A DNA stretch of 64,000 bases from Bdellovibrionales bacterium (GCA_965217115.1 OZ244239.1:480001-544000); one strand, 5' to 3'; shown: positions 86-54,201, counted from the first letter of the stretch. Made by a program: numbers and translations. Notes: generated by a model not told the origin, from the sequence alone.

Positions 86-337
86 TTTAAGCAAGCCCGC
101 TCGCTACGATGCTCAAAGAGCGAGCCCTATCTATCTATCTTTCTTTCCCTACCTCCGCCCCGCTCCGCTCCGCCCCCGCTGTTCCCAGTCAAACGCAGAT
201 TTCAAAGCCTGTTTTTTAAATGGATCTTTGTTATTTAAGCGAGTTCGGATTGGTGCGATGCTCGCTTCAGCGAGCGCCGCTGCCAAACGAATGTCTGAGC
301 TTAAATAATAAAGATCCATTTAAAAAACCTCCCTTTG
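86..337 (+). repeat. Hairpin repeat copy R1 (type I): 43-nt satellite, pyrimidine tract, left flank, 30-bp inverted arms (211-240 / 299-328) around a 58-nt core
   Basis: GTTTTTTAAATGGATCTTTGTTATTTAAGC ... GCTTAAATAATAAAGATCCATTTAAAAAAC (one G:T pair). Nearly identical to 2698-2973. Confidence 0.95.
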
Positions 338-497
338 AAAATTTTTCCCATCTTTTTCACCTTATTTCACACTGCCCTATTTTTTTTAGACCCAGCAAAC
401 ACCCTATGCTACAGTGCATCATTATAAGTCCTTTAACTTTAACCATGCCATTGATTTTATTCTCAAAATTGGTGTCATCAATAAGCAGGAGAAAACC

Positions 498-1154
498 ATG
501 AAAGCTTTATTATTAATTGTTACACTCTTATCTTCATTTCCATTACTTGCTGAACTGAAGGTAGTTGGAGAGTACAAGGGTATTCCAATTGTACGATCGA
601 CTCCAAATCAGCGGAGAATCAATTCAAGACTGAGAGCTTGTACAAAAAAGTATTTCCAATTAGCTATCATAGCGGTAAGTCCCGAGAAATCGGTTACAGA
701 AACAACGTGGGTTTTAGATAATTGTCCTAAGATAGATATCAATCAAGAAATGTTTTCTCCTTATCGAGCTACTCCCAAGAGTGTCTATCATTGGAAGCCG
801 ACCCATAGTGCAGTCTTTCAGGGAAAAGTGGGATTGCTGGAACTGCTCATTGATAGAGGTGCAGACTTAGACGCAATAGCAAAGATCAAATGGAATCGTC
901 ATAATGCTAGTTATTACTCACCCTTAACCTATGCTCTTCTCCGGAAGGAAGCCGAGGTCGCATTGGCCTTAATTAAAGGCGGAGCTGATGTGAATATGAG
1001 GGTTTCACAACAACTTTTCGATAGAGCTCACTTACCATTAGAGAGAGCCAGGGTTTTTGGAAATAAAAGAGTCATAAAAGCCCTACTCGCTGCAGGTGCG
1101 GGTAAAGATGACGATAAATATAACTATCATGAAGATGACCAAAATCGCCCTTAA
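498..1154 (+). CDS. Secreted ankyrin-repeat protein
   Basis: ATG at 498 after AGGAG, in frame with ORF 414..1154. Signal peptide MKALLLIVTLLSSFPLLA. Ankyrin motifs LLIDRGADLD, SPLTYA...LIKGGADVN, LPLERA...LLAAGA. Confidence 0.85.
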   Translation: MKALLLIVTLLSSFPLLAELKVVGEYKGIPIVRSTPNQRRINSRLRACTKKYFQLAIIAVSPEKSVTETTWVLDNCPKIDINQEMFSPYRATPKSVYHWKPTHSAVFQGKVGLLELLIDRGADLDAIAKIKWNRHNASYYSPLTYALLRKEAEVALALIKGGADVNMRVSQQLFDRAHLPLERARVFGNKRVIKALLAAGAGKDDDKYNYHEDDQNRP

Positions 1155-1208
1155 AACTAAAATAACAAAAATAACCTATTACTTGAATAATATAAACAGG
1201 AGATTAAA

Positions 1209-2612
1209 ATGAAAAAAATTATTACACCTATTTTCTTTACAATTATGAGTTTGATGCTTTTGACTCAAGAATCTAACGCCAAATCGAACTGTCGTGATGG
1301 TGCTTCCGAGATCTTTCTTTTTGACGCTGACAGAGGGAATTACAACTGCATAAAGGATGTCACGACCGTGGATTTAGATGGCGATCAGCGACCAGACATT
1401 GTCTATTTACTGGAAACAGGAATCAAGGAATACTATCATGATCGTGTGTACAAGATCGTTTGGAGAAAAAACATGGGTGATGGAAAATTTTCTTCCACAC
1501 AGGTTATTCGCTCTATAACACGAAATACCTTCTTTGAAACTAGAGATGATTTCCTTCCTGAACAGAAGAACCGCTCTGGATTCTCTTTTCCTTTTGAAAA
1601 AGCTAACTTGGTCTTAAAAGATTTGGACAAGGATGGATTAGTAGATATCATTTTTTCTTTAGGAAGAGGTATCTATAAGAATAGTAACTCCTGGGAGGCT
1701 TATAATGAGGTCGTTTGGTATAAGAATAATGGAAGAATGTCTTTTTCTGAAAAAAAATCACCGTTTGCCATCAAGTCTGGCGTTATAGCATCTCTCACTA
1801 TAGAGGACTATAATGGAGATGATATTTTAGATATTGGTTATACTGCTATTGGGGATGATATAATTATTCCTAGAGGGCTGAACGGAGTTTTTTTAGGAAA
1901 AGGGAAAGGCCTCTTTCACCCAGACGCTGGTTCTATCCGCACTGGTTCCCATGAAAATGATTTTAAATCATATACAGCTGTGGGTAAATTCTCAACTGAT
2001 CCTTATCAAAGTGTCGTTTATCTTTATAATAGGTCAGGCAATAACAATCGTTACAAGCCTCTTTTAATTGCTGGAAACATTGGTTTCGACAAGGATGGTC
2101 GTATACATCTTCCCACTGAATCATATCAACTTTCTTACTTTAAGAGTGGTCAGAGTGGCGGAGTAACCAAGCCGACTGTCAGAGATTTCAATGTTGATGG
2201 GTTGTCCGATCTTTTGGTTAACATAGATGGTGTGGGTGCTTATATCTATACTTTTGTGAGTAATGATTTCTTACCCTATGAAGACAAGATCACAGACCGC
2301 TACACAACATCTGTTAGAGCGATAGATGTCGATGGAGATGGCTTGTTAGATATTGTTTATTCGTCTTATGAAATCTCCCTCTTTTTCTTTGACGTGCACC
2401 GTTTAGCATGGAGAAAGAATCTAGGTTCTAGAAAATTTTCTTCTGAAAGACTTATTAAAAAGCCTTCTTCTTACACTGAATTAGCCGCAGTAGGAGATTT
2501 TAATGGCAATGGAATGATCGATTTAGTAACTCTCTCCGTAAAAGGAAAGGACAAAAAATCAAGTCTGACCATCCATAACGATCTTATTCCAAAATCAAAC
2601 AGCAAGAACTAA
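1209..2612 (+). CDS. Secreted FG-GAP/VCBS repeat (integrin-like beta-propeller) protein
   Basis: Signal peptide. Repeated DxDxDGxxD motifs: DLDGDQRPD, DLDKDGLVD, DYNGDDILD, DFNVDGLSD, DVDGDGLLD, DFNGNGMID. Confidence 0.85.
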   Translation: MKKIITPIFFTIMSLMLLTQESNAKSNCRDGASEIFLFDADRGNYNCIKDVTTVDLDGDQRPDIVYLLETGIKEYYHDRVYKIVWRKNMGDGKFSSTQVIRSITRNTFFETRDDFLPEQKNRSGFSFPFEKANLVLKDLDKDGLVDIIFSLGRGIYKNSNSWEAYNEVVWYKNNGRMSFSEKKSPFAIKSGVIASLTIEDYNGDDILDIGYTAIGDDIIIPRGLNGVFLGKGKGLFHPDAGSIRTGSHENDFKSYTAVGKFSTDPYQSVVYLYNRSGNNNRYKPLLIAGNIGFDKDGRIHLPTESYQLSYFKSGQSGGVTKPTVRDFNVDGLSDLLVNIDGVGAYIYTFVSNDFLPYEDKITDRYTTSVRAIDVDGDGLLDIVYSSYEISLFFFDVHRLAWRKNLGSRKFSSERLIKKPSSYTELAAVGDFNGNGMIDLVTLSVKGKDKKSSLTIHNDLIPKSNSKN

Positions 2613-2665
2613 ACTATCTCCAGAAGAAACTAAAGACGAGGATGACGTCGACCAACTAAGAAAAC

Positions 2666-2700
2666 ACAAAGGCCACTCCAAAGTGGCCTTTGTTACTTTT
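2666..2700 (+). terminator. Probable intrinsic terminator after the FG-GAP gene
   Basis: 12-bp stem ACAAAGGCCACT-CCAA-AGTGGCCTTTGT followed by a T-rich stretch. Confidence 0.75.
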
Positions 2701-2983
2701 AAGCAAGCCCGCTTGCTACGATGCTCAAAGAGCGAGCCCTTTTCTTTTTTCTTTTTTCTTTTTTTTTCTTTCCTTTTCTTTTTCTTTTCCTTCCCTACCT
2801 CCGCTCCGCCCCCGCTGTTCCCAGTCAAACGCAGATTTCAAAGTCTGTTTTTTAAATGGATCTTTGTTATTTAAGCGAGTTCGGATTGGTGCGATGCTCG
2901 CTTCAGCGAGCGCCGCTGCCAAACGAATGTCTGAGCTTAAATAATAAAGATCCATTTAAAAAACCTCCCTTTGCCCAAATCAA
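2698..2983 (+). repeat. Hairpin repeat copy R2 (type I), direct repeat of R1
   Basis: Arms 2847-2876 / 2935-2964 and core identical to R1. Ends in TTTGCCCAAATCAA, abutting the icmF stop codon. Confidence 0.95.
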
Positions 2984-5900
2984 CTAAAGGTTGCGTCGAT
3001 ACTCCCCCCCCACCCCATACAAAGCCCCAGAAATCTGCCCCAAACTACAGTGCCTCGTAGCCGACATCAAAGCCTCAAAAATATTCTCCCCTCTTAAAGC
3101 CACAGATTTTAGATTTTCAAGCTCTCTCTCCCCATCGACTTTATGGGACTCCTTAAAATTTAAGCAGTTCTTTAATTGGGAGTTTTTTTCTGCAGCAGAG
3201 GCCCTTGCCATCTTGATTTTCTCAGGGACATATCCTGCCTTTAAGGTTTCAGGGTCAATAAAAGTATTCACGCCCACCACTGGGTACTCACCGCTGTGTT
3301 TTAAATGCTCATAGTGCATCGATTCTTCTTGGATCTTCGACCTTTGATACTGCGTCTCCATCGCCCCCAAAACACCACCGCGCTCATTGATCTTCTGGAA
3401 CATTTCCAAAACCGACTCTTCAACGAGATCTGTTAACTCTTCAAAGAAAAAGCTTCCTTGATTGGAGTTTTCATTCACTGCCGCGCCAAACTCTTTATTG
3501 ATAATTATTTGTATAGCCATCGCACGTCTGACCGATTCTTCTGTCGGTGTGGTGATAGCCTCATCATAGGCATTCGTGTGCAAAGAGTTGCAATTATCAT
3601 AGGTCGCAAGCAACGCTTGCAGTGTCGTGCGAATGTCATTGAATTGAATTTCCTGGGCATGGAGAGAACGTCCACTCGTTTGAATATGATATTTTAACTT
3701 TTGCGAACGCTCATTGGCACCATAAACATCTCTCATCGCTACAGCCCAAATACGCCGCGCCACACGACCTATCACCGAATACTCAGCATCCATACCATTA
3801 CTAAAAAAGAACGACAGGTTGGGAGCAAACTCATCAATGTCTAACCCTCTAGCCAAATAATACTCCACATAGGTAAAGGCATTGGCCAAAGTAAACGCCA
3901 CCTGACTAATAGGGTTCGCGCCCGCCTCAGCAATGTGATAACCAGAGATACTCACTGAATAAAAATTTTCTACTTTATTTTTGACAAAATATTGGGCAAT
4001 ATCTCCCATCATTTTCAATGCAAAATTGATCGAAAAAATACAGGTATTCTGTCCCTGGTCTTCTTTAAAAATATCAGCTTGAACGGTTCCACGGACACTG
4101 GTTAAAGCTTCCTGTCGCGTCTCTTCCATCTCTTGTTTTGTAAGGTCACGCTTCCATTCTTTTTCTTTTTCCTCCACCAGTTGATCAATAGCGGCGTTAA
4201 AGAAAAAAGCCAATATTATTGGCGCTGGTCCATTGATCGTCATACTCACACTGGTCTTGGGATCACATAAATCAAAACCAGCGTAGAGTTTTTTCATATC
4301 CTCAAGAGTGCAAATACTCACGCCACTCTCACCCACCTTGCCATAAATATCAGGGCGTGCATCAGGGTCTTGACCATACAAAGTCACACTATCAAAAGCC
4401 GTCGACAATCTCTTTGCTGTCTCCGTGTCCGCTAAGTAATGAAACCTTTTGTTTGTTCTCTCGGGAGTTCCCTCACCTGCAAACATTCTCTTTGGGTCCT
4501 CTCCCTCTCTTTTCAAAGGAAATACACCCGAAGTGAATGGAAAAGCCCCAGGAAAATTCTCCAAGCGCAAAAATCGCAGTCGATCCCCCCAGTCCGTGTA
4601 TCGAGGGACAGACACTCTCCTGATCTTTGAACCACTCAAGGATTCACGGTAAAGATTTTGACGAACCTCCTTCCCTCGAACCTTAAACACATATTCATCA
4701 CTCTTATAAGTATTTATTAAACTCTGCCAAGAATTTAATAATTCAAGATGACTTCCCAAATCTTTTCTCAAAGACTCTTTATTATGATGAGAACCCTTAA
4801 TCGAGGCTCCCACTGACTCTATTTTTTCTATTGCTCCTAAGAGAGATGCTTTCTCAGATAACTCTTCCGTGGTTTTTCTATAGTTCCTGATATTTTTAAC
4901 AACCTCAGCTAAATAATTCTGACGGTCTGGGGGAATAATAATATGTTCATTGGAACTCACCAAACTATCTTTATACTCATCTTTCAATTGCCACTGACGT
5001 TCTTGATCCCCCTTTGCCAGCGAATCTATCAACCCAAGAAATAGGCGATTTACTCCTCCATTATTAAATTGAGCCGCCTCTGTTAAATAAATAGGAAGAG
5101 TCTTGGGGTCTTGACTAAATAATTTCCGCGAACGCTGGTACTGTTTAGCCACATCTCGAACAGCATCTTCCGCCCCTCGACGATCAGCCTTGTTAACAGC
5201 GATAAGATCTGCGTAGTCAATCATGTCAATTTTTTCTAACTGACTTTGGGCCCCAAACTCAGAGGTCATCACATACAAACTCAAATCTGCAAATTCTGTG
5301 ATCGCAGTGCTCGCCTGACCAATTCCCGATGTCTCTGCAATCACCAAATCAAAGTCACACTTTTTTAAAAAACGAAGAATCTCAGGCAGTGAGTTGGCCA
5401 CCTCATTGCCAGACCCCCTCGATGCCACCGAACGCATATACACACGATCACGACTCAAAGAGTTCATACGAATACGATCACCCAGCAATGCTCCACCTGT
5501 TTTACGTTTAGACGGGTCCACACACACCACGGCTATTTTCTTATCACTGTAGGCATTTAAAAAACGATGGAGAAGCTCATCAATCAAACTTGATTTTCCA
5601 GCCCCACCAGTTCCTGTCATACCTAAAACCAGAGGCTCATTTTTAGGTTTGTAGAAACTCCCTAATTGTTGCAAATACGGCTTTAAACCTTCACCGCCGT
5701 CTGCATGATTTCTATTTTCAATCGCCAACAAGGCTCTACCCAAAATAACACTTGGCACAGGATCAGATTCTCCAAAGCTTTGACCCTCCTCTATCTCCTT
5801 AACTTTTTCCAACACATCAAAATCACACTCACGCATGATCATCTCAATCATTCCCTCTAAACCCAAGCGACGCCCATCATCTGGGTGAAATATCTGTGCA

Positions 5901-6256
5901 ATGCCGTACTCTTCCAAAGCCTTCTTCTCTTCATGGATGATAACGCCACCGCCACCACCAAAAATACGCACATATCCGGCACCACACTGATCAAGTAAGT
6001 CCTTCATGTACTTAAAATATTCCATGTGTCCGCCCTGATAAGAACTCACACATATTCCCTGGGCCCCTTCTTGGATAGCCGTTTTCACCACTTCATAAAC
6101 AGACCGATTATGGGCTAAATGAATAACCTCAGCCCCCATCTCCTGAAGAATTCTACGCATAATATTAATACTCGCATCATGGCCATCAAACAACGAGGCT
6201 GCCGTTACGATGCGAATATTCTTTTCTGCTTGATATGCCAAAATAAAATCTCCCAC
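2984..6256 (-). CDS. icmF: Fused isobutyryl-CoA mutase / MeaB-like GTPase (B12-dependent)
   Basis: N-terminal B12-binding DGHD motif, P-loop GTGGAGKSS, mutase domain (RLSTAFDSVTLYG, HIQTSGRSL). 1090 aa. Confidence 0.92.
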   Translation of the reverse strand: MGDFILAYQAEKNIRIVTAASLFDGHDASINIMRRILQEMGAEVIHLAHNRSVYEVVKTAIQEGAQGICVSSYQGGHMEYFKYMKDLLDQCGAGYVRIFGGGGGVIIHEEKKALEEYGIAQIFHPDDGRRLGLEGMIEMIMRECDFDVLEKVKEIEEGQSFGESDPVPSVILGRALLAIENRNHADGGEGLKPYLQQLGSFYKPKNEPLVLGMTGTGGAGKSSLIDELLHRFLNAYSDKKIAVVCVDPSKRKTGGALLGDRIRMNSLSRDRVYMRSVASRGSGNEVANSLPEILRFLKKCDFDLVIAETSGIGQASTAITEFADLSLYVMTSEFGAQSQLEKIDMIDYADLIAVNKADRRGAEDAVRDVAKQYQRSRKLFSQDPKTLPIYLTEAAQFNNGGVNRLFLGLIDSLAKGDQERQWQLKDEYKDSLVSSNEHIIIPPDRQNYLAEVVKNIRNYRKTTEELSEKASLLGAIEKIESVGASIKGSHHNKESLRKDLGSHLELLNSWQSLINTYKSDEYVFKVRGKEVRQNLYRESLSGSKIRRVSVPRYTDWGDRLRFLRLENFPGAFPFTSGVFPLKREGEDPKRMFAGEGTPERTNKRFHYLADTETAKRLSTAFDSVTLYGQDPDARPDIYGKVGESGVSICTLEDMKKLYAGFDLCDPKTSVSMTINGPAPIILAFFFNAAIDQLVEEKEKEWKRDLTKQEMEETRQEALTSVRGTVQADIFKEDQGQNTCIFSINFALKMMGDIAQYFVKNKVENFYSVSISGYHIAEAGANPISQVAFTLANAFTYVEYYLARGLDIDEFAPNLSFFFSNGMDAEYSVIGRVARRIWAVAMRDVYGANERSQKLKYHIQTSGRSLHAQEIQFNDIRTTLQALLATYDNCNSLHTNAYDEAITTPTEESVRRAMAIQIIINKEFGAAVNENSNQGSFFFEELTDLVEESVLEMFQKINERGGVLGAMETQYQRSKIQEESMHYEHLKHSGEYPVVGVNTFIDPETLKAGYVPEKIKMARASAAEKNSQLKNCLNFKESHKVDGERELENLKSVALRGENIFEALMSATRHCSLGQISGALYGVGGEYRRNL

Positions 6257-6280
6257 TGTAGGTGTTTAAAATGATTTAAG

Positions 6281-7072
6281 CTACTTCCCCTTAAAATCAG
6301 CACGACGCTTTTCTATAAAAGCATTCGCCCCCTCTCTTTGATCGTCACTGGTGAAGAGTTTACTAAATGCTCTTTTTTCTAAATCCATCCCCTGATCGAT
6401 AGAAACATCATAAGCACCGCTGATCACTTCTTTTGCCTCAGCTATAGCTATCGGACCACGACTTGCTATTAGTTCAGCCGTCTTTTGACACTCGGCCATC
6501 AACTCTTCAGGAGCAAACACCTTATTTACTAAACCAATGCTCCGTGCTTCCTCAGCATCAATGAAATCCCCCCGATAGATCAGCTCACGCGCTTTTGCTA
6601 AGCCCACCAGCCGAGATAAACGGACCGTGCCACCAAAACCAGGAATAAGTCCCAGTGTCACTTCAGGTAAACCAAACTTAGCTTTCTGACTAGAATAAAT
6701 AAAATCACAAGACAAAGCCAATTCCAACCCTCCACCAAGAGCAAAACCATTGACTGCTGCAATAACAGGGATTTTTAATTTCTCAAGCTGTCGAAACACA
6801 TCTTGCCCCTTACTGGCAAAACCCTGTGCATCCTTCTCATTCATAGTTGGAAAGCCTTTAATATCAGCTCCAGCCACAAACGCATTCCCTGCACCTGTTA
6901 TGATTAAACAACGTAATTTAGATTCTTTTTCAATGTCGGATAGACACTGGACTAATTCTTCGAGTGTGGATTCATCTAAAGCATTTAAAACCTTAGGGCG
7001 ATTCACCGTTAAAAGTCCAATCTCACCTTGGTTATCTAATGTTCTCTTTGTAAAAATTAATCTTTCCATCAC
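6281..7072 (-). CDS. crt: Enoyl-CoA hydratase (crotonase)
   Basis: AFVAGADI, VNGFALGGGLELAL, FGLPEVTLGLIPGFGGT. Confidence 0.88.
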   Translation of the reverse strand: MMERLIFTKRTLDNQGEIGLLTVNRPKVLNALDESTLEELVQCLSDIEKESKLRCLIITGAGNAFVAGADIKGFPTMNEKDAQGFASKGQDVFRQLEKLKIPVIAAVNGFALGGGLELALSCDFIYSSQKAKFGLPEVTLGLIPGFGGTVRLSRLVGLAKARELIYRGDFIDAEEARSIGLVNKVFAPEELMAECQKTAELIASRGPIAIAEAKEVISGAYDVSIDQGMDLEKRAFSKLFTSDDQREGANAFIEKRRADFKGK

Positions 7073-7100
7073 ACACCTCTGTAAAACTCCTGCACTACAA

Positions 7101-7952
7101 CTAGTACTCGTAAAACCCTCTTCCTGTTTTACGTCCTAACCAGCCCGCTTCAACATATTTTACCAATAGGGGGCAAGGGCGGTATTTACTATCACCTAAT
7201 CCACTATAAAGAACTTCCATTATAGCCAGACAGGTGTCTAAACCAATAAAATCAGCAAGAGCCATTGGCCCCATTGGCTGATTCGTGCCTAACGTCATCG
7301 CATTGTCAATACTCTCAATTGAAGCAATGCCCTCATGCAGAGTGTACACCGCCTCATTAATCATGGGCATCAAGATGCGATTAACAATAAACCCAGGCAT
7401 ATCTTTGACTGACTCAACAAAAGTTTTCCCTAATTTTTCAGATAACTCTTTAACAAGTAAGAAAGTTTCGTCAGAAGTCTGCAACCCACGAATCCCTTCA
7501 ACCAATTTCATTAAAGGAACAGGATTCATAAAATGCATCCCTGCAACTTTATCAGGACGCTCCGTCGCTGTGGCAATCTTAGTGATTGAAATCGAAGATG
7601 TATTTGAACAAAGTAACGCTTCTCTCTTAATTGTTTGATCTAGTTTCTTAAAAATAGAAAGTTTTAGATCTATATTTTCCGTCGCTGCCTCAATGACAAT
7701 ATCACAGTCCTTCAACTCAACCATATCAGTGGCTGTACGCACGCGGCTTAAAAGATCTTTTTTATCTCTCTCAGAGATTTTCTCTTTTTTTATTAACCGA
7801 TCACAGCTCTTAGAAATTGTCGCTAAACCTTTCTCAAGAGCTGAATCAGAAATATCCAACATCACGACATCGTATCCTTTCATTGCCGCCACCTGAACAA
7901 TGCCATTGCCCATTTGCCCCGCTCCAACAACACCTATTAATTTTATTCCCAT
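7101..7952 (-). CDS. hbd: 3-hydroxybutyryl-CoA dehydrogenase
   Basis: [33 protein letters not shown]. Start trimmed to MGIKLIG (ORF track starts at 7985). Confidence 0.9.
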
Positions 7953-8142
7953 AGAAATTCTCCTCTCATCCATCAAACAAACCACGGCAAAACTACATCG
8001 AAAGAACCAAAGTCACAACCATTGTCATTTAAACCTCCTGATGTTTCTCCACTCAAATACCACAAAAAAGCAGCCGAATCACAAACTAAAGACACGTTGC
8101 GTTGATGCCTGATCATAATTCCCTCTAAATAATTAAAAACCG

Positions 8143-10797: not shown

Positions 10798-10866
10798 GAA
10801 TGGTAGAATAATCCCTTATACTTCACAATTGCAAGGATTCACAGGGGTTTGAAAAATCTCTTTAGC

Positions 10867-10898
10867 AAAAAAAAATGGTGGCTACAGGAACCACCATT
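10867..10898 (-). terminator. Intrinsic terminator of the 10917-11627 gene
   Basis: AATGGTGG/CCACCATT stem with an adjacent A9 run (U-tract on the minus strand). Confidence 0.7.
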
Positions 10899-10916
10899 GC
10901 GGTATTACAAAACAGA

Positions 10917-11627: not shown

Positions 11628-11864
11628 TGTATCTCCTCGTTTAATAAAGTTGTTCAACACTATTAAGAGCAAAGATGAGGCCAGCTTTCCATCCATTTGG
11701 CACACCAAACCCGTGTGAGTTGTTTCTGGTAAGAGGGCTTTGCATCAAAATGAGACTGTGACTAAAAATGTCTCTCCCGTGGTAAACAGCCGACTAATCC
11801 TTTGACACTTCTCCAATTTGAATAGGAATAGCTTTTTTAAACCGCCCATTAAAAAAACCGCCCA

Positions 11865-14042: not shown

Positions 14043-14044
14043 AA

Positions 14045-25281: not shown

Positions 25282-25892
25282 AGCTATAGTTATAGCAATT
25301 TTAAAGCCATAAAAAGGCTTCTTTGTGATAAATAGTGGAACTGTTCCCAAGAGACTCATCTTGAGGGCTCTCTTTCTAAAACTATCCATGGATAACAGCG
25401 TTGTTACACATGGAGGTCAGTCATAGAAATAGAGGAGATCTGTCTAGTTAACGGAGCATAGTTTTGTAAACCAACCCAGGTTTATTATTATTCGTTTTAA
25501 ACTTTCGAGGGAATTTGTCCAGAATAAATGACCTATTTCTAAACCAACACTTTGGCCTTCCCAGTCTTTCTTTTGTACAATTCCCTTTGATATTACACTA
25601 GAGATCCATTGACTCATTGATTGAATACGTCCTTTTTTTCTAGAGTCTCTCCCAAAAGAATCCAGTTCTTTTCGGCGAGTTTGGCTTGGCGACTTCCATT
25701 GCATTTCTCTGCAATGGAAGGTGACAAACGAATGTTTGAGCAAGAAAAGGGCTGGATTCTTTTGGGAGAGATTCTAGAAAAAAAACAGCTCATCAGAAAA
25801 AACTGGTTCCACTATTGTTTGTCATAAAGAACCTAAAAAGGCTTGCCGCCAAAGGTCTTAACCCCATTGGCTGCAAGATTTTTAAAAATACG

Positions 25893-41810: not shown

Positions 41811-41880
41811 ATCTATAAGTTACAGTAAAAACTCATAAATCCTAATTGACTCAACCTAATAATCAGCGTTAACTGGACCC

Positions 41881-42780: not shown

Positions 42781-42808
42781 CAAAAATTCTTCTAGAGGGA
42801 CCTTCTCT

Positions 42809-43672: not shown

Positions 43673-43675
43673 ATA

Positions 43676-44383: not shown

Positions 44384-44910
44384 TTCGTCATATTTTTTAC
44401 ATTCTTCTTATATCCTTTACTCTTCTGAGTGCAATTCTTGCCTATCGTCTCGGCGTGTTTAAACCAGTCAAGTTGGAGATCAAGAAGCAAACACAGTTTC
44501 AAGTCATTTTTAAAGAACACATCGGCCCCTATCACAAAATCGTTCCTATCATTGAAGGGGTTGAAAAGTGGGCCAAAGCCAATGGGCTCCCTTGCACAAG
44601 ATCTTTTGGGGCCTTCTTAGATGACCCCAAGACCACCGAAGAAGTCAGATTAAGAAGCCACGGTGGCTGCCTTATCAATTCATTACCCTTAAACCTTCCA
44701 GAGGGTTTTAAAAGTGCGCACATACAACTTAGCCAATACGTGTACGCCGAGTTTACCGGCTCACCAGGTATCGGTGTGTGGAAGGTCTATTCACCTGTAT
44801 TTGAATTAATGAAGAAGCGACGTTTCCAAAAGTTGTCACCTATCTATGAAGTCTACGAGATCACGGGTAAAGACAGTATGAAAACCAGATATTATTTCCC
44901 ATTTAAATAA
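44380..44910 (+). CDS. GyrI-like small-molecule-binding domain protein, membrane anchored
   Basis: N-terminal TM. HIGPYHKI, FLDDP, YEVY motifs. Confidence 0.7.
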   Translation: MIRHIFYILLISFTLLSAILAYRLGVFKPVKLEIKKQTQFQVIFKEHIGPYHKIVPIIEGVEKWAKANGLPCTRSFGAFLDDPKTTEEVRLRSHGGCLINSLPLNLPEGFKSAHIQLSQYVYAEFTGSPGIGVWKVYSPVFELMKKRRFQKLSPIYEVYEITGKDSMKTRYYFPFK

Positions 44911-44914
44911 TTTG

Positions 44915-47161
44915 CTATTTCTCAATGAAAGAACGTAAGAGATTCAATGCCGAACCCGCCTTAAACCACTTGATCTGATCTTCATTATAGGTGTGCTTGG
45001 TTTGAATACTTTCAACAGAACCATCTCTGTGTTTTAAAACCACTTCTAGGTTTTTTCCCGGAGCAAAATCCTTCAAACCAATAACGGAAACAGAATCTCC
45101 CTCTCGAATTTTATCGTAATCACTCGTATTAGAAAAATGCAGGCCTAACATTCCCTGTTTTTTTAAGTTTGTCTCATGGATACGAGCAAAGCTCCGCGCT
45201 AAAACAACGACCCCACCAAGATGACGGGGACACATCGCCGCATGCTCTCGACTACTGCCCTCTCCATAGTTCTCATCACCAATGATCATCCAATTTTTTC
45301 CTGTGCCCTTATAAGAACGGGCTATTTTAGAATACGGCTTTTCCTTATCATGCCCAACCTCTCCCGTAAAAGCATTATCAGCTCCTATCAGAAGGTTGTC
45401 TGAAATATTATCCAAATGCCCACGAAAACGTAACCACTTACCACCTGGGCAAATATGATCCGTCGTGCACTTGCCCTTTACTTTCGCCAAAATAGATATT
45501 TCCTCAAAGTCCTCACCTGACCATGCAGCAAACGGTTCTAACAAAGCCAAACGCTCCGAACCTTCAGGCACTCTCACTTCAACCCCGCTGCCCTTGGGAG
45601 ATTGATAACCTTCACTGTCTGGCACAAAGCCTTTCTCTGGTAATTCTGGAGCCTGGGGTGCTTGCAATTTTATTTTACCCTTTGGACCTTCTAACTCTTG
45701 AGTCATAGGATTGAAGCCTAAATTCCCCGCAAGGCCAAGGGCCATCACCAACTCAGGGCTACCGATAAAAGAGAGTGTCTCCCCATTGCCATCGTTTCTT
45801 CCTCGAAAATTACGATTGAAACTCGTCACAATCGTATTGGTTTCACCCACCTTAATATCATCGCGCCTCCACTGACCAATACATGGGCCACAGGCATTCG
45901 TTAACATCGTGGCTCCCACATCATTTAGAGTCTTAGAGTAACCGTCTCTCTGAATCGTATTAGCGACTAAACTTGAACCAGGGGATACAAAAAAGTTTTG
46001 TGGCATTTTTATCCCCACTGACGAGGCCTGTTTCGCCACGAATGAAGCTCTACCAATATCCTCATAGGAAGAGTTGGTACAAGAGCCAATCAACGCCGCC
46101 GATAACTTCGTCGGCCATCCATTCTTCTCACACTCTTTAGCCACTTCACTAATGGGACGAGCTAAATCTGGAGAATGGGGACCCACGAGATGGGGCTCCA
46201 AAACCGACAAATCAATCTCAACAACAAGATCGTAATGATCTTTTGGTGATGCTAAAACCTCCTCATCAGCACATAAAATATCTCTGTGACTCTCGGCCAA
46301 CTCCACAAGAAAATCTCGTTCTGTTGCCTTTAAATAATCTGCCATTCTATTATCATAGGGAAAAACAGAACAAGTCGCCCCCAGTTCAGCCCCCATATTA
46401 GTGATCGTCGCTTTACCAGTGCAACTGATGGAGTTTAAACCTTCACCAAAATACTCAATAATACGATTGGTCCCGCCCTTTACAGTTAAGATTCCCAAAA
46501 GTTTCAAAATAACATCCTTAGCCGATGTCCAGCCATTGAGTTCCCCTGTTAAACGAACCCCGACAATTTCTGGATCTTTCACCTCCCAAGTTAACCCTGC
46601 CATAACATCAGAGGCATCCGCCCCCCCGACCCCAATGGCACACATCCCTAAACCACCAGCATTCGGAGTGTGAGAGTCTGTTCCAATCATCAATCCACCG
46701 GGAAATGCATAGTTCTCCAAAATAATCTGATGAATAATTCCCGAACCAGGTTTCCAAAAACCAATTCCATAACGACTGGCCGCAGAACCTAAAAATTCAA
46801 AAACCTCTTTATTAAGCTCATTTGAAGCTGGAAGATCTTTGTCTTTACCCATGTAACCTTGAATCAAATGATCACAATGAACCGTTGAAGGCACAGCTGC
46901 CTCCTCTTTTCCTGCTAACATAAACTGCAACAAAGCCATCTGCGCCGTCGCATCCTGCATCGCCACACGATCAGGCCGTAATTGTAAGAAGCTCTTCCCC
47001 CGTCCAAATTCCTGGGATTCAACATTATCCAAATGCCCAAACAATACCTTCTCTGCTAAGGTCAACGGACGCTGTAAACGTTTCCGAACAATCTCAATGT
47101 TTTGACGGCTTTTTGCATAAATCTTTTTCACCATATCTGAAGTCGTTTCAATCACAGCCAT
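44915..47161 (-). CDS. Aconitate hydratase (mitochondrial-like clade)
   Basis: [41 protein letters not shown]. Confidence 0.93.
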
Positions 47162-47238
47162 CTAAAATTCTCCTTGTGTCACACTCTGAATACTTTCCAG
47201 ACTATGCTCTGCTTCTTGGTGTTTGCAGTCAAGAACTG

Positions 47239-47412
47239 TTTGTTTGATTTGGGCAAAGAGGTGTTTTTTAAATGACATATATTCTTTAGCTCAGACATTC
47301 GTTTGGCTGCGGCGCTCGCTTTGCGAGCATCGCACCAATCCGAACTCGCTAAAGAATATATGTCATTTAAAAAACACATCTTTGAAATCTGCGGCTGGGC
47401 TGGGAACAACGG
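47239..47412 (-). repeat. Hairpin repeat copy R3 (type I, whole element inverted)
   Basis: Perfect 30-bp arms 47261-47290 / 47348-47377. The reverse complement aligns with R1, R2 and R8. Confidence 0.95.
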
Positions 47413-47540
47413 AGAGAGAGAGAGAGAGGGAACAACGGAGAAGGACGGGAATAATGGAGAAAGAGACAGAGGGGGGACAACGGAGAAAGAGAAAGAGGGG
47501 GGGAACAACGGAGAGAGAGAAGGAAGGGGGGGGGGGGGGG
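47402..47540 (+). repeat. Purine-rich tail with about five GGGAACAACGGAG-like units, (GA)n tracts and G15
   Basis: Units at 47402, 47428, 47447, 47474 and 47501. G run 47526-47540. Confidence 0.85.
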
Positions 47541-47550
47541 AGCGATTTGT

Positions 47551-47587
47551 AAAAAAAAGCTACAATTTTATGATTGTAGCTTTTTTT
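47551..47587. terminator. Bidirectional intrinsic terminator of lipoprotein paralogue A
   Basis: AAAAAAAAGCTACAAT-TTTATG-ATTGTAGCTTTTTTT. Confidence 0.85.
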
Positions 47588-47609
47588 AACTATTATTTAA
47601 GAGCTAATT

Positions 47610-48701
47610 TTAGATACAATAAATCTTATCCAAAAATACACTTGGTAATTCTATAACATTCGGAGGTTGATCACCGCGCAGTCTTAACAATGTTCGCTTG
47701 GTAGGTTTCGTCTTCAATTCCCACACATCTGTCGTCTCATTAAACTCATAAACATCACTTGAAACATCATCAAAGGGTTCATACCTAATGGAGTAGGAAA
47801 GTAGGTTATCATAACCTGACTCTTTACAAATATTAGCGGCACCCTTTTTGGCCATAGGTAGAAAGCTGTCATCAACAAGATCGTTCATATGTATAATGGT
47901 CCTAAAAGCTCTCCGAATAGTCCAAGCTTCATCGGCGTTTTTTATTAGGAAAAAACTAGATTCTGTATAAAAATTGCTAGCAGGCTTCATAACAGTTGCT
48001 AGTTTTGCCGCAAGAATACTCTTTATCATCTCTGGATAATCGTCATTAATAGCAGAATTATCCTTAAAATGAGAAAGTGTTGTGCCGAAGCAAGTTATAG
48101 ACGCCATATAATTTTTTTTCTCGCCTATTTCTTCATTATAATTATTATAATACATGGAATACTTTTTATCATCACTCTCAAATTTAAAGTAATGGCTCTT
48201 AATATCTAGAGTGTCTGGAAACATACTGCCAGAAACTGGGTTTGATACCAGTGTGGCATGAAGAACAGGATAAGTTACTTTAAAATCATAGTAGTTGGCA
48301 GGCATAGATTCAAAAACCTCAGTTCGACTAGTATAATCATTTATTGTTGTATACCTTCCAAGTTCAGGGCTAGTAAAACCAAGGAAAGAGCAAATCTTTT
48401 GCACTTGCTCGTCTCCATCTTCTCCAGATATCCTTATGCCATTACCAATAGTAATTGGTTTCACGGCATCATCTCCTATCTCATTGATTGCTGATAATCT
48501 CACACTGTCATCTGCGGAAAAATATTCAACCTTAACATTCGTATCTTCTTTGCTTCCGTCTCCCACGACTGCTCCACGGTAACTCGTATCAATAATCACA
48601 ACATCACTGCCTTGATAAATATCATCATCATCACACCCAGAGATACTTAAACCAAGTAGCAAAGATAAGAGAGAATTCCTCATTATTAGTGTCTTTTTCA
48701 T
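47610..48701 (-). CDS. Lipoprotein paralogue A, unknown function
   Basis: Lipobox LSISGC, four further Cys. Paralogue of 49867..50955. Confidence 0.85.
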   Translation of the reverse strand: MKKTLIMRNSLLSLLLGLSISGCDDDDIYQGSDVVIIDTSYRGAVVGDGSKEDTNVKVEYFSADDSVRLSAINEIGDDAVKPITIGNGIRISGEDGDEQVQKICSFLGFTSPELGRYTTINDYTSRTEVFESMPANYYDFKVTYPVLHATLVSNPVSGSMFPDTLDIKSHYFKFESDDKKYSMYYNNYNEEIGEKKNYMASITCFGTTLSHFKDNSAINDDYPEMIKSILAAKLATVMKPASNFYTESSFFLIKNADEAWTIRRAFRTIIHMNDLVDDSFLPMAKKGAANICKESGYDNLLSYSIRYEPFDDVSSDVYEFNETTDVWELKTKPTKRTLLRLRGDQPPNVIELPSVFLDKIYCI

Positions 48702-49060
48702 TTTTAGATCCTTTTAGATAAAGATTAGAGAATAGAGAAAACAATATTCCCATGTAGGTTGATTATTTCTTTGTTTATTAAATTATTAGACCCTGATTAT
48801 AACCGAAGAGAGAGAGTTTTTCTTAAGAAACTTACAAAGTTGAATATTTTACAAATGCCCATCAAGAGAACTTATCTTTTCCAAAATATTTTAAGCGTGT
48901 GACGAGAGAAGCTGTTGTAACTTACCGTAAATACTATGACCTAATCTGTATTTATTTTATTTCTATTTATTTGGTAGATTGTAATCTATTTTCCAAAAAA
49001 GCACTAAAATCAAACAATAGACGCCTATTCCTCTCCCCTTCGCTGTTCCTTACCCTCTCT

Positions 49061-49305
49061 CCGTTGTTTCCAGCCCAGCCCAGCTGCAGATTTTAAAAAT
49101 ATGTTTTTTTAAATGAATGTTTATTCTTTAGCTCAGACATTCGTTTGGCTGCGGCGCTCGCTTTGCGAGCATCGCACCAATCCGAACTCGCTAAAGAATA
49201 AATATTCATTTAAAAAACCACCCTTTACCAAATAATAGGTTTTAGCCAAGTCGAAAAATGCCACAATAATTCAACCTCCCCAGTTAGTTGTCCCCGTCCC
49301 CCTCT
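49061..49305 (+). repeat. Hairpin repeat copy R4 (type II: core flipped) plus linker
   Basis: Arms 49103-49132 / 49190-49218. Core 49133-49189 is the reverse complement of the R1-type core. Confidence 0.93.
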
Positions 49306-49547
49306 CCGTTGTTCCCAGCCCAGATGCAGATTTCAAAAATATGTCTTTTTAAATGAATGTTTATTTTTTAGCTCAGACATTCGTTTGGCTGCGGCGCTCG
49401 CTTCGCGAGCATCGCACCAATCCGAACTCGCTAAAGAATAAACATTCATTTAAAAAATCACCCTTTACCAAATAATAGGTTTTAGCCGAGCCGGAAAATG
49501 CCACAATATTCAACCTCCCCAGTTAGTTGTCCCCGTCCCCGTCTCCA
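49306..49547 (+). repeat. Hairpin repeat copy R5 (type II) plus linker
   Basis: Core lies 240 nt downstream of the R4 core (49373-49429). Same linker. Confidence 0.93.
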
Positions 49548-49783
49548 TCTCCATTACTCCCGTCCCCTTTTCCTGTTGTTCCTAGCCCAGATGCAGATTT
49601 CAAAAATATGTCTTTTTAAATGAATGTTTATTTTTTAGCTCAGACATTCATTTGGCTGCGGCGCTCGCTTCGCGAGCATCGCACCAATTCGAACTCGCTA
49701 AAGAATATATGTCATTTAAAAAACACATCTTTGAAATCTGCATCTGGGCTGGGAACAACGGAGAAGGACGGGAATAATGGAGA
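49548..49783. repeat. Hairpin repeat copy R6, chimeric, with left-type flanks on both sides (long palindrome)
   Basis: Left arm as in R5, right arm as in R3. Outer flanks are mutually complementary. Confidence 0.9.
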
Positions 49784-49806
49784 AAGAGGGGGGGGGAGCG
49801 ATTTGT

Positions 49807-49844
49807 AAAAAAAAAGCTACAACTTTATGATTGTAGCTTTTTTT
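49807..49844. terminator. Bidirectional intrinsic terminator of lipoprotein paralogue B
   Basis: AAAAAAAAAGCTACAA...TTGTAGCTTTTTTT, a copy of 47551-47587. Confidence 0.85.
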
Positions 49845-49866
49845 AACTATTATTTAAGAGCTAATT

Positions 49867-50955
49867 TTAGATACAATAAATCTTATCCAAAAATGCACTT
49901 GGTGCTTCCATTTCATCCGGCGGTGTATTAGGACCTCGCTTCCTTATTATTGTTCGCTTGGTAGGTTTCGTCTTCAATTCCCACACATCTGACGTCTCAT
50001 TAAACTCATAAACATGACTTGAAACATCATCAACGAATTCATATCTAAGGGTGTAGGAAAGCAGATTATTATAACCTGACTCTTTACAAATATTAGCGGC
50101 ACCCTTTTTGGCCATGTCTAGAAAATTGTCCTCATCGTCGTAATCGCGCACACGTATAAAGTTCTCAAATCTAAGATGCCAAAAGTCATGGGCATTTTTT
50201 ATCAGGAAAAAACTAGATCCTGTATAGAAATTGCTAGCAGGCTTTATAATAGTTGCTAGTTTTGCCGCAAGAATACTCTTTATCATCTCTGGATAATCGT
50301 CATTAATAGCAGAATTATCCTTAAAATGAGAAAGTGTTGTGCCGAAGCAAGTTATCGATGCCATATAACTCTTTTTCTCGCCTATTTCGTTTTCTATATA
50401 GCTTTCATAATATTTGGGCCGCTCTTTCTCGCTATCAAAATAATGACTCTGAATATCTAGAGTGTCTGGAAACATACTGCCAGAAACTGAATTTGGTACC
50501 AATGTGGCATGAAGAACGGGATAAGTTGCGCTGAAGTCTCTGTAATTTCTGTGGGTATATTCAGGCTTCTCTCTATAAACCTCAGTTCGACTAGTATAAT
50601 CATTTATTATTGTATACCGTCCAAGTTCAGGGCTAGTAAAACCAAGGAAAGAACAAATTTTTTGCACTTGCTCGCCTCCATTTTCTCCAGAAATTCTTAT
50701 ACCACCACCAATAGTAATTGGTACTGTGGCATCTCCTGCCTCATTGATTGCTGATAATTTCACACTGTCATCTGTGGAAAAATATTCAACCTTAACATTC
50801 GTATCTTCATTGCTTCCGTTTCCCTCAACTATTCCACGGTGACTCGTATCAATAACGACATTAGGAGAACTACCTGTATAGTCATTACACCCAGAGATAC
50901 TTAAACCAAGTAGCAAAGATAAGAGAGAATTCCTCATTATTAGTGTCTTTTTCAT
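49867..50955 (-). CDS. Lipoprotein paralogue B, unknown function
   Basis: Same signal peptide and lipobox as paralogue A. Blockwise identity with it. Confidence 0.85.
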   Translation of the reverse strand: MKKTLIMRNSLLSLLLGLSISGCNDYTGSSPNVVIDTSHRGIVEGNGSNEDTNVKVEYFSTDDSVKLSAINEAGDATVPITIGGGIRISGENGGEQVQKICSFLGFTSPELGRYTIINDYTSRTEVYREKPEYTHRNYRDFSATYPVLHATLVPNSVSGSMFPDTLDIQSHYFDSEKERPKYYESYIENEIGEKKSYMASITCFGTTLSHFKDNSAINDDYPEMIKSILAAKLATIIKPASNFYTGSSFFLIKNAHDFWHLRFENFIRVRDYDDEDNFLDMAKKGAANICKESGYNNLLSYTLRYEFVDDVSSHVYEFNETSDVWELKTKPTKRTIIRKRGPNTPPDEMEAPSAFLDKIYCI

Positions 50956-51245
50956 TTTAGATCCTTTTAGCTAAAGATTAGAGAATAGATAAAACAATAT
51001 TCCCATGTAGGTTGATTATTTCTTTTTTATTAAATTATTAGATCCTGATTATAACCGAAGAGAGAAAATTTTTCTTAAGAAACTTACAAAGTTGAATATT
51101 TTACAAATGCCCATCAAGAGAACTTATCTTCTCCAAAATATTTTAAGCGTGTGACGAGAGAAGCTATTCTAACTTACCGTAAATACTATGATCTAATCTG
51201 TATTTATTTTATTTCTATTTATTTGGTAGATTGTAATTATTTCCC

Positions 51246-51301
51246 AAAAAAACACCCTTTGCCAAATAATAGGTTTTAGCCGAGTCGGAAAATGCCACAA
51301 T
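51246..51301 (+). repeat. Orphan type II right flank/linker without the hairpin
   Basis: AAAAAAACACCCTTTGCCAAATAATAGGTTTTAGCCGAGTCGGAAAATGCCACAAT matches the sequence following R4, R5 and R7b. Confidence 0.85.
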
Positions 51302-51630
51302 TAATTACTTTTGATAATGTCTCATCTTATTACTGGATTCACGATATAGAGTCTTACATCGACGAGAGCCTAGAAAGCGAAAAGAAGGCTTATTAGCCCC
51401 TTCTCTGCTTCGTTTTCTACTCACTAAAAGCACCCTAAACTTAGAGATATCTTTGCCTGAAAAACTAATTTACTCTCTATGATATCAAGTGTTTACAAAA
51501 ATATAAGATTACGTAAACTCTTCCTAACTTGCTAAAAAGACGGTATTTGAACGTTTTTTGCACAGATTTTGGTCGATTTATGTTATTATAGACGTAGAAA
51601 GTACCGATAAAAGAAGGTATGGAGGCAAAT

Positions 51631-52050
51631 ATGTCAGATTCAGCACAGACAATAAATAATGATGTTAATGGTGGAATACTAAATTCACTAGGCATCTTAA
51701 CTGAGGATGGCATGGGTTTTCATCCTGATGCATTTTTTAAATATAGTCCCTACAGCAGAACAGTCCTTGCAAAAGAAGCAAAAGTTTCCAGAACTAATTT
51801 ATACAAAGATACTGTTAAATTAAGCACTATTAAGCAATTAAGAAAAGGTATCCTTCAAGTTGTAATGGGAACAGATTTAACTATCGAGCTTTTTAAAGAC
51901 AATACAGAAGAAGCAATCAAATGGTTTAATGCTCCAAATACAATGCTATCTGGTGAATCTCCTTTTGAAGTCTGTATTAGAAGTGATGGACATGGACTTT
52001 TAAACTGGTTAAGAGGGAGACTTGGTTACAGCGATGCTGTCCCTTTTTAA
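51631..52050 (+). CDS. Xre/MbcA/ParS-type antitoxin
   Basis: GGAGG RBS. HTH-like LAKEAKVSRTNLYK. C-terminal LF...EEAIKWFNAPNTMLSGESPF. Directly upstream of a RES gene. Confidence 0.8.
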   Translation: MSDSAQTINNDVNGGILNSLGILTEDGMGFHPDAFFKYSPYSRTVLAKEAKVSRTNLYKDTVKLSTIKQLRKGILQVVMGTDLTIELFKDNTEEAIKWFNAPNTMLSGESPFEVCIRSDGHGLLNWLRGRLGYSDAVPF

Positions 52051-52056
52051 TTGATA

Positions 52057-52795
52057 GTGGCCAAAACAAAAAAGAAAACCACTAAAAAAAAACACAGCAA
52101 AGAAAAAGGTTCCAAAAAAATATATTATACGCTTTAGTAAAGAAGTTCTTTTGAAGTATGTCCAAGATGATATTCAAAAAAATCAACAAATAGAAAAAAA
52201 TCAAATAATTGAATCAATGAGGTTTGAGCATTCGTTAAATACTCAAGGGAAATTAAACTTTCAAACATTTAAAGTTTCTTTTAATGATCCTGTTTATAGA
52301 GTTTATCCAAAACAGTTTAGTGTAACTAGCATCCTTGGGAGCATCTCTGACGGTGCGAGATTAAATATTGGAGGGCCACAAATTCTAAAATCAAATTTTC
52401 CTTTTAATAAATTTGGAGCATTATATATTTCAAATACAATGGCTGGGGCAATTGCAGAATATTGTCAGGGAACGCCTTTAGATAAAAATGACTACAAGTA
52501 CACACTGCAACCTCAAAAAACTTTTGAGTTGTGGGATTTAGATAAAGTTGTTAGCAACTTGCAAATTTCATCTCTGAAATTTCTAATTGATAAATTACCA
52601 ATTGGAGGTGGCTGGGGAAATTGCAAAGTCCCAATGCCTTCTCAGATATTAGCAACTTGGTTAAAAAGCATAGATGGTGATGGGATAATGTATACTTCGA
52701 CTAAAGACCTAAACTCTAAGATTATTGCGATCTTCACACAAAATGATAGAGAATCTGAAAATAATTTTTCAATAATTAGCAGAACAAATATATAA
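52057..52795 (+). CDS. RES-domain toxin (putative NAD+ phosphorylase); 5' end apparently frameshifted in an A9 run (intact ORF 52151..52795)
   Basis: VYRV (R), GARLN, ALYIS...AIAEY (E), SQILA, DGIMYTS (S). GTG at 52057 joins this frame if one A is removed from 52084-52092. Confidence 0.75.
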
Positions 52796-53132
52796 TTAAA
52801 ATAACTGCTAGAAGAAAAGAAAGCTCTTATGATTATTCCTACGTTATTCCGTAGTGACAATTTACCAGAAACTGTTTTTTCAGAAAATGATTTTTAGCAT
52901 AGAAGAAGGACTTGGGGTAAATATTATAAGACAGAAGGATTGATGGCAAAATTTAGTGATGCCGGCAAAGCTGGATGGAGTTAAAAAGCCTAGCATGGCT
53001 TGTTTCTGCCCACGTTAGCTATGTTAATGCTCCGACAGGTAAAACCCCAACAACAAGAACAGTTTTTCTCTGACTCCTCAAGTAGCTTAAATGCTAGAAC
53101 TGCTGCCATCGATTAACTCTCAGAACCCTTGG

Positions 53133-53582
53133 TCAAACGTGTCCGATGCTTCGTTGAATAATTTGATCAAGTTTTCCTAAAAATTTAGATCGATCGGTCT
53201 TAGTCATGGAACTGGGGCCAGTGTTGGTATGTCCTAGAGTTCTAAGATGGGCATTTATTTTTCTTGCAGCTAGTGCGCTACCGATATTTTCCTCATCAAA
53301 TTCATAACCTTTTGCTCCGAGTACTTTGGCTTCTTTTTGAATTCCACGTTCAGCTAAAAGCAAATCTGCTGTAATGAGAATGTCACCAGCTTTGATATTC
53401 TCAGCTATCCAGTCATCGGCAGCATCAAAGTCATTGGAGACCACTTGCATTTCAATGTTTTTATCCAGGGGAGTATTTAAGTATTGATTGGCGACAACAA
53501 TCACTTTTAACTGGTAACGAGCAGCTACTTTATAAGTTTCTTCTTTAACTGTGCAGCCATCAGCGTCGATATAAATTGTCAT
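53133..53582 (-). CDS. YaiI/YqxD family (UPF0178/DUF188) protein
   Basis: IYIDADGC.VK, DAADDWI, GDILITADLLLA, TGP. Confidence 0.88.
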   Translation of the reverse strand: MTIYIDADGCTVKEETYKVAARYQLKVIVVANQYLNTPLDKNIEMQVVSNDFDAADDWIAENIKAGDILITADLLLAERGIQKEAKVLGAKGYEFDEENIGSALAARKINAHLRTLGHTNTGPSSMTKTDRSKFLGKLDQIIQRSIGHV

Positions 53583-53671
53583 TTAAGTCCCTTTCAATTT
53601 GTCATCTTTAGTCTATATAAAACAGCATCAGAGAGAATAACTATCAAGCAACATCTATTTCATAACCCCTT

Positions 53672-53756
53672 TCCCCCGTTGTTCCCGTCCTTCCCAACTA
53701 TTCCTGTCCCCCGTTGTTCCCGTCCTTCCCAACTATTCCTGTCCCCCGTTATTCCC
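53672..53756 (+). repeat. 35-nt tandem repeat (about 2.4 copies) in the pyrimidine-rich tail of the repeat element
   Basis: TCCCCCGTTGTTCCCGTCCTTCCCAACTATTCCTG at 53672 and 53707, partial at 53742. Confidence 0.9.
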
Positions 53757-53820
53757 AGTCCAGCTGCAGGTTTCAAAAATATGTTTTTTTAAATGGACAT
53801 CTATTCTTTAGCGAGTTCGG
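53746..53820 (+). repeat. Truncated hairpin repeat copy R7a (left flank, left arm and 8 nt of forward core)
   Basis: ...TTTAAATGGACATCTATTCTTTAGCGAGTTCGG, then an abrupt switch to R7b. Confidence 0.85.
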
Positions 53821-54025
53821 TATGTTTTTTAAATAAATATTTATTCTTTAGCTCAGACATTCGTTTGGCTGCGGCGCTCGCTTTGCGAGCATCGCACCAA
53901 TCCGAACTCGCTAAAGAATAAACATTCATTTAAAAAACCACCCTTTGCCAAACAATAGGCTTTAGCCGAGCCGAAAAATGCCACAATAATTCAATCTCCC
54001 CAGTTAGTTGTTCCCGTTCCTATCT
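53821..54025 (+). repeat. Hairpin repeat copy R7b (type II, core flipped) plus linker
   Basis: Core 53853-53909 identical to the R4 core. Linker as after R4 and R5. Confidence 0.92.
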
Positions 54026-54201
54026 CCGTTGTTCCCAGTCCAGCTGCAGATTTCAAAGATGTGTTTTTTAAATGGACATCTATTCTTTAGCGAGTTCGGA
54101 TTGATGCGATGCTCGCGAAGCGAGCGCCGCAGCCAAACGAATGTCTGAGCTAAAGAATAGATGTCCATTTAAAAAACACCTCTTTGCCCAAATCAAACAA
54201 A
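54026..54201 (+). repeat. Hairpin repeat copy R8 (type I)
   Basis: Perfect 31-bp arms 54061-54091 / 54149-54179. Ends TTTGCCCAAATCAAACAAA, overlapping the top6A stop. Confidence 0.95.

Follow-up and report, generated by a model that had tools for sequence, protein, structure and literature searches.

A non-coding foldback repeat family with an invariant asymmetric internal loop in Bdellovibrionales genomes

What keeps the two arms of a long non-coding hairpin complementary when the arms differ from copy to copy, and what brings such hairpins to the ends of genes? The question is raised by a stretch of 64,000 nucleotides from a Bdellovibrionales bacterium (GCA_965217115.1 OZ244239.1:480001-544000; hereafter the window). 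A reading made from its sequence alone had described a family of hairpin elements of REPIN/MITE type (REPIN, repetitive extragenic palindrome (REP) doublet forming a hairpin; MITE, miniature inverted-repeat transposable element), the arms of which were kept paired either by structural selection or by copying of one arm from the other. The window corresponds to positions 480001-544000 of a genome (G000) assembled as a single contig of 2,170,531 bp, with 39.6% G+C and a completeness of 99.4%. The explanation favoured here, which we would back about evenly, is a REPIN/MITE-like, non-autonomous foldback-type mobile DNA element of unusual design that is specific to Bdellovibrionales. It is read as mobile non-coding DNA because of its copy-number bursts, its patchiness, its presence and absence at one site, its nesting and arrays, and its association with foreign genes.

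All eight full copies that had been claimed for the window were found. An 11-mer of the core, GCGATGCTCGC, occurs eight times, at positions 255, 2891, and 54106 on the plus strand and 47323, 49165, 49405, 49672, and 53885 on the minus strand, against 0.27 occurrences expected from dinucleotide shuffles, none of 100 of which reached eight. The arms quoted for R1/R2, R3, R4 (on the plus strand), and R8 match the sequence as written, and the sequence also bears out the nested stems of the core and the apical loops TTCA, AAA, and GAA. R1 spans 181-339 (+) with its flanks and has its rod at 209-330; it is matched by nhmmer at genome positions 480181-480339, over positions 1-157 of the profile hidden Markov model (HMM), and scores 116.3 bits with the covariance model (CM). 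R2 (2817-2984, +; nhmmer and CM) has its right end 3 nt from the TAG stop of a convergent icmF-type mutase gene (2984-6256, -). R3 (47243-47406, -; 127.8 bits with the CM) and R8 (54032-54197, +) form the left and right edges of an accessory islet. The former lies 98 nt from an aconitase gene, on the start-codon side of that gene, and the latter ends in the motif AAATCAA, the TCA of which serves as the stop codon (TGA) for the convergent gene of Topo VI A (54193-55359, -).

Within the islet, the core is flipped relative to the flanks in R4 (49098-49225, -), R5 (49334-49464, -), and R7 (53822-53948, -); in a comparison of R4 with R8 the flanks align directly and the core in reverse. R6 (49601-49755, -), taken for a chimera from the start, does join a left arm and flank of R3 type to a right arm of R5 type, with the crossover within the core, and is the lowest-scoring full copy (98.9 bits with the CM). 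The three core flips had been missed, as had a truncated ninth copy (53753-53821, +) that adjoins R7 and consists of the left flank, the left arm, and the first 10 nt of the core, and one copy of a second subfamily, B (core at 25663-25753, +), which has the same internal-loop motifs and a different apical stem (CTTCCATTGCA/TGCAATGGAAG). The rod length of about 120-135 nt holds for the quoted arms; beyond them come a T-run/A-run and conserved flanks, which bring the full rod to about 160-170 nt. An unrelated GC-rich hairpin (86-125 and 2698-2737) precedes a C/T-rich tract upstream of R1 and R2, and is present in just these two local copies genome-wide.

Searches of the whole 2.17-Mb genome with nhmmer and the CM located 64 full copies of the main family, A (forward matches), in about 18 places, many of them in tandem arrays with a unit of 168-275 nt and accompanied by truncated half copies, which break inside the core. 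Subfamily B adds about 40 copies with 89-97% identity to the query copy over about 170-300 nt; these share the internal-loop motifs of A, and their apical stem is unrelated. Weak 80-nt nhmmer matches considered as tRNA-like were rejected as such: none overlaps any of the 37 tRNA genes, and they correspond to subfamily B. A coding reading of the element was likewise rejected, as core lengths of 60-63 nt break any frame. At 1657515-1657753 of the genome the left flank alone occurs as four tandem copies with a 66-nt period, beside a full copy. The family had not been recognised at first sight, and Rfam gave no match at the gathering score over the whole window; at loose thresholds a single copy matched only generic long-hairpin miRNA models, far under their cut-offs (44.3 bits vs 139). 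A literature search at the level of result listings returned no description of such a repeat in Bdellovibrio.

The claim that the arms co-vary was examined in two alignments. For family A, 30 copies non-redundant at 93% identity were aligned, with a 31st copy excluded for its apical insertion. RNAalifold folds them into a single long rod of 44 pairs, 32 of which show compensatory change. Pairing is kept in 97.3% of 1320 cells, compared to 77.2% after shuffling (a value reached by 0 of 500 shuffles), and drops to 40.5-49.4% when the 3' partner is slid by 1-3 columns. Changes on both sides were found in 28 of 28 arm pairs, and the arms are 96.9% paired. In the second alignment, of 36 copies drawn from 10 genomes, 86.6% of the cells are paired vs 65.1% when shuffled (again 0 of 500), with compensatory change in 25 of 26 pairs. 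Across these genomes it reaches the short core helices as well (12 of 12 pairs in helices 3 and 4). The covariation is strong among the 30 copies of this genome and holds across the 10 genomes. The arms are variable and the centre is conserved, and among old, diverged copies of the genome the core is much better conserved than the arms. The one part that hardly varies in the 36-copy alignment is an asymmetric internal loop, with 5' CGAGTT facing TGTYYGAG, and the region above it ranges from a 5-bp stem with a tetraloop up to about 100 nt.

The two strands of the element are not equivalent. In agreement with the description of the residual mismatches as mostly of G:T type, the arms of the 30 A copies contain 27 G:U-type mismatches against 7 of A:C, and one G:U position recurs in 19 of these 30 diverged copies. 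When the two strands are folded as RNA, the forward one comes out as the more stable in 26 of 31 copies of this genome, 22 of 28 copies of relatives, and 40 of 40 copies of subfamily B. DNA folding parameters give a strand bias in the same direction, and the lower stems alone show a weaker one (forward better in 25 vs reverse in 11 for relatives, 18 vs 8 for this genome). Taken together, short helices that co-vary, a loop that does not change, and strands of unequal stability point to recognition of a folded single strand. Structural selection, one of the two options offered by the sequence-only reading, is thus supported, on one strand. The other option, copying of arm from arm, is kept for the long arms because the core flips show that arms recombine; it fails for the core helices of 4-7 bp and for the persistent G:U position.

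A model built on the copies of this genome found matches in 9 of 40 relatives. With a broader model, 41 of 151 Bdellovibrionales genomes from 12 of 13 families were matched and 110 were without a match. Positive genomes carry from 1 to at least 29 copies, four of them at least 29, the counts in relatives being lower bounds. None of 127 genomes from other orders of the same phylum was matched by the broader model, and viral contigs contained no match to two element patterns. Metagenome contigs gave two matches, neither of them adjoining a gene of the Y1 (tyrosine transposase) type. Among the genomes searched, the element is patchy yet order-wide, and restricted to Bdellovibrionales.

Several observations bear on movement. 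Two Bdellovibrio-type genomes carry the element behind their tRNA-Gln gene, and their stems differ at several positions, with matching changes on the other arm. At this site, four further genomes show an unrelated segment of some 60 nt that opens with a T-run/A-run, and a fifth has a canonical terminator hairpin in place of the element. One metagenome contig holds a copy within the apical loop of another copy, and the apex of three copies at 427-430 kb is enlarged by a 38-nt palindrome. Together with the half copies, the R6 chimera, and the three in-place core flips, these arrangements describe a family that nests, breaks, and recombines. Contigs from one sample that join across parts of the islet were of low depth and lay in repeats, and were not used as evidence. 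At the same tRNA-Gln locus (L097, L114, L123-L128), six of seven genomes compared have part of the 3' end of the gene repeated in inverted orientation behind it, and three of those six also have a direct partial copy there; a conserved GC-rich stretch of about 150 nt adjoins. The arrangement may be the scar of an old integration or, alternatively, a structured RNA.

All copies examined are intergenic, with genes around them called by a simple open reading frame (ORF) rule, and their orientation relative to these genes follows a pattern. Other genomes, 17 in number, contributed 39 copies; the 3' neighbour is directed towards the element in 29 of these, mostly no more than tens of bases away, and the 5' neighbour in 19 of 38. 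Five of the 39, each in a different genome, begin within about 12 nt past the 3' end of a tRNA gene. In the genome studied here, the stop of a convergent gene lies 0-35 nt beyond the rod end (defined as the point 30 nt past the core) in 20 of 63 copies, and in at least five copies this stop coincides with the TCA of AAATCAA, the end motif, as it does for R8 and the Topo VI A gene. A co-oriented gene lies upstream of 50 of 63 copies, at a longer and more variable distance. In the strand lists, inverted pairs within 10 kb are arranged with their 3' sides out in 7 to 8 cases and in the opposite way in one; one of the eight is R7/R8, whose apparent inversion is a core flip. Some pairs simply flank housekeeping genes such as glmU and glmS. 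At the base of the rod a T-run is followed by an A-run.

The sequence-only reading had seen no cognate enzyme in the window, and this was confirmed; none was found either among the families searched across the rest of the genome. A RAYT (REP-associated tyrosine transposase) or Y1 gene beside a copy, proposed there as a thing to look for, is lacking in this genome and has a counterpart in one relative. Many relatives (G005, G016, G020, G031, G036, and others) carry several copies of a Y1-like gene family, with products of about 181 aa and up to 27 matches per genome; its loci have no TnpB partner in view and no common flanking long hairpin. In G020, a copy of the element is found no more than about 300 nt from five of seven paralogues of the 181-aa gene, in arrangements that vary, and among 93 ORFs around 25 copies in relatives this Y1-like gene was the sole recurring pairing. 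The G020 genes score under the NCBIfam REP-transposase cut-off (18.2 bits vs 80). This Y1/HUH transposase-like family, beside copies in one relative and absent from the genome studied here, is the best lead to a candidate mover.

A number of results weigh against a mobile element. PF01797 (Y1/RAYT) gave no match in the genome at E<=0.01, tblastn with ten G020 Y1-like proteins, seven of them of the paralogue group, reached a best E of 0.006, and neither TnpB nor an IS110 transposase was found there. What the genome offers is a retron reverse transcriptase (RT), one rve fragment, XerC/D-like genes, and one phage-type integrase. Among the relatives, the Y1 genes of G005 and G011 do not adjoin copies, 19 Y1 loci in 19 other genomes yielded two weak matches to the element model only (24.8 and 12.1 bits), and G008 and G019 hold at least 29 copies each without a Y1 match. 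No target-site duplication and no clean empty site between close strains could be defined: at tRNA-Gln the filled and empty sites belong to different species, and the empty site shows the T-run/A-run without a clean duplication. With the origin placed by GC skew near 1.26 Mb and the terminus near 0.17 Mb, no replication-linked orientation bias was seen, the replichores holding 20 plus and 15 minus and 9 plus and 20 minus copies, which is about even per locus. Lastly, the conservation of the core over the arms in old copies looks like selection in place, which is not expected of a purely selfish element. The retron (L053, 1867139-1870675 of the genome) is of type VI, with an RT_VI match of 239.5 bits in PADLOC and an HTH_VI partner, and holds the only reverse transcriptase found in the genome.

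The placement at gene ends can also be read as that of a cis-acting RNA module useful to the host, the invariant loop of which would be bound by a conserved RNA-binding protein or nuclease. Such a module might act as a 3'-end protector, as an insulator of convergent genes or of foreign from host genes, or as a short antisense RNA, and its spread would be owed chiefly to local duplication and to travel with the genes that it serves. Helices that co-vary round an invariant loop in 10 genomes are the usual signature of a protein-binding RNA, and tolerance of G:U pairs on one strand, core conservation in old copies, the strictly intergenic position at gene 3' ends with a co-oriented gene upstream in most copies of this genome, and the arm-matched differences between the tRNA-Gln-site copies of two species are all in keeping with it. 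An RNA role nevertheless fits poorly because of polarity and patchiness. The better-folding strand is antisense to the gene whose end is abutted, the co-oriented upstream gene is present in about half of the copies in relatives, and the T-run followed by an A-run at the base is the reverse of an intrinsic terminator. The lack of a match in 110 of 151 genomes, copy numbers from 1 to more than 100, and copies that nest, flip, and make gene-less tandem arrays are equally hard to reconcile with it, which leaves the RNA module possible and rather doubtful.

The islets suggest a different role. The one in the window (47161-54193) is punctuated by copies and sits between housekeeping genes. It contains two paralogous orphan genes (47610-48701 and 49867-50955), an Xre/RES pair (51619-52795), and a DUF188 gene (53133-53582). 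The orphan genes encode 362-363 aa without a Pfam family, are each followed by element copies, and belong to a tandem duplication of about 2.2 kb (47551-49000 / 49808-51252) with 85-99% identity. At 51619-52795 (+), a protein with an Xre/MbcA/ParS-type antitoxin domain is followed by a RES-domain protein, likely a toxin-antitoxin pair. Next to the islet, adjoining genes for Topo VI A (TOP6A/Spo11 Toprim) and Topo VI B (Topo-VIb transducer) occupy 54193-57208 (-) in this bacterial genome. In total, at least ten islets were found in which co-oriented copies separate small, mostly orphan genes; 24 of 42 cargo genes scanned (from 65 ORFs called) are without a Pfam family, and none of the 42 is a recombinase or transposase.

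Such islets between housekeeping genes recall integrons, and the element could be a gene-cassette recombination site served by a recombinase other than the integron integrase. Like attC sites and CALINs (clusters of attC sites lacking integron integrases), the copies are folded, strand-specific sites with unpaired bases that stand in co-oriented arrays between small, promoter-less accessory genes; the crossover of R6 within the core and the asymmetric bulges add to the likeness, and the low-depth contigs that join across parts of the islet give a weak hint in this direction. We hold a cassette site to be highly improbable all the same. IntI is lacking, the best match to TIGR02249 being a XerC-like protein at 120.7 bits against a cut-off of 265, and no recombinase lies in or beside any islet. 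Judged by eye against the attC consensus, the box order differs, with the R''/R' order lacking (GTT...AAC vs AAC...GTT). The conserved part of the element is central, many copies form gene-less tandem arrays or stand singly, for instance behind tRNA genes, and the same cassette was never seen in two places.

It is very unlikely, finally, that the arm covariation comes solely from palindrome halves correcting each other by gene conversion or template switching, the fold having no role: arm-arm recombination is seen in the core flips of R4, R5, and R7 and the arms drift fast yet stay paired, but the core helices are too short for such correction and have still changed on both sides between genomes, the recurrent G:U position survives where it should have been erased, stability is asymmetric between the strands, and the internal loops are unpaired and invariant.

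For the favoured foldback-type mobile element, the following course is proposed, of which the passage through single-stranded DNA, the choice of target, and the enzyme at work are what we infer. Its functional heart would be the asymmetric internal loop with the short helices that flank it, and a trans-acting protein would read this module on one folded single strand, the forward one. New copies would land just past gene 3' ends, possibly in the middle of short T-run/A-run palindromes, and would adopt a fixed polarity with the 3' side towards the stop codon or tRNA end. Resident copies would then duplicate into tandem arrays and recombine via the conserved core and their own arms, and through arrays and recombination they may become seams at which accessory genes gather. 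Pairing of the stems would be kept by propagation or retention of foldable copies only, and the long arms may also correct each other.

The comparison with REPIN/MITE-type elements made by the sequence-only reading holds for behaviour and fails for the defining features, the conserved part being a central internal loop in place of terminal repeats or paired REPs, and no RAYT being present. REPINs, as one account describes them, are extragenic, high-copy, and hairpin-forming, and compensatory changes are common in the hairpin (PMC3116915), as they are in the stems of the element. Both occur in ordered clusters and persist vertically within a lineage, and the Y1/HUH-type gene beside copies in one relative adds to the likeness. 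A REPIN conserves two inverted REPs at its ends with the middle free, whereas the element has free ends and a conserved central asymmetric loop. A RAYT was looked for without success in this genome and in two further genomes with many copies, and the neighbouring Y1-like genes of the relative are multi-copy and below the REP-transposase cut-off.

Other families of interspersed palindromes offer partial parallels. Correia elements (CREE/NEMIS) and ERIC/IRU sequences are imperfect palindromes of about 100-170 bp, intergenic and present in many copies, often at gene ends, non-coding, and foldable in transcripts. The element resembles these and MITEs in being an intergenic imperfect palindrome of high copy number at gene ends without coding capacity. 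The defining marks of a MITE are terminal inverted repeats that are conserved, a target-site duplication, and an insertion sequence (IS) as its parent. The arms of the element vary by locus instead, and its conserved flanks (TGTTCCCAGTCAA and TTTGCCCAAATCAA) resemble imperfect direct repeats. No target-site duplication could be delimited, and the search for a parent IS brought up none, with TnpB and IS110 lacking and rve represented by a single fragment. Transposons of the IS200/IS605 type, which move as single-stranded DNA, tend to show a replication-linked orientation bias; the element differs from palindromes derived from them in having no such bias and in residing in a genome without Y1.

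A broader proposal, which we regard as unlikely, is that the family stands for a class of its own among bacterial foldback elements, one whose hallmark would be an invariant asymmetric loop on a folded single strand and not terminal repeats. Members of such a class would be moved or processed by a protein not yet tied to repeats, would home to the first bases past stop codons and tRNA ends, and would seed integron-like islets without an integron integrase.

Interspersed palindromic repeats are common, and most families are without a known mover or function. Here, a single loop of 6 nt by 8 nt is kept order-wide amid compensating change, which makes it a defined bait for a partner protein, and the polarity and tight abutment to stop codons and tRNA ends suggest a targeting rule that can be tested. 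The family also marks the sites of accessory-gene accumulation in the small genomes of predatory bacteria that are otherwise nearly devoid of transposases.

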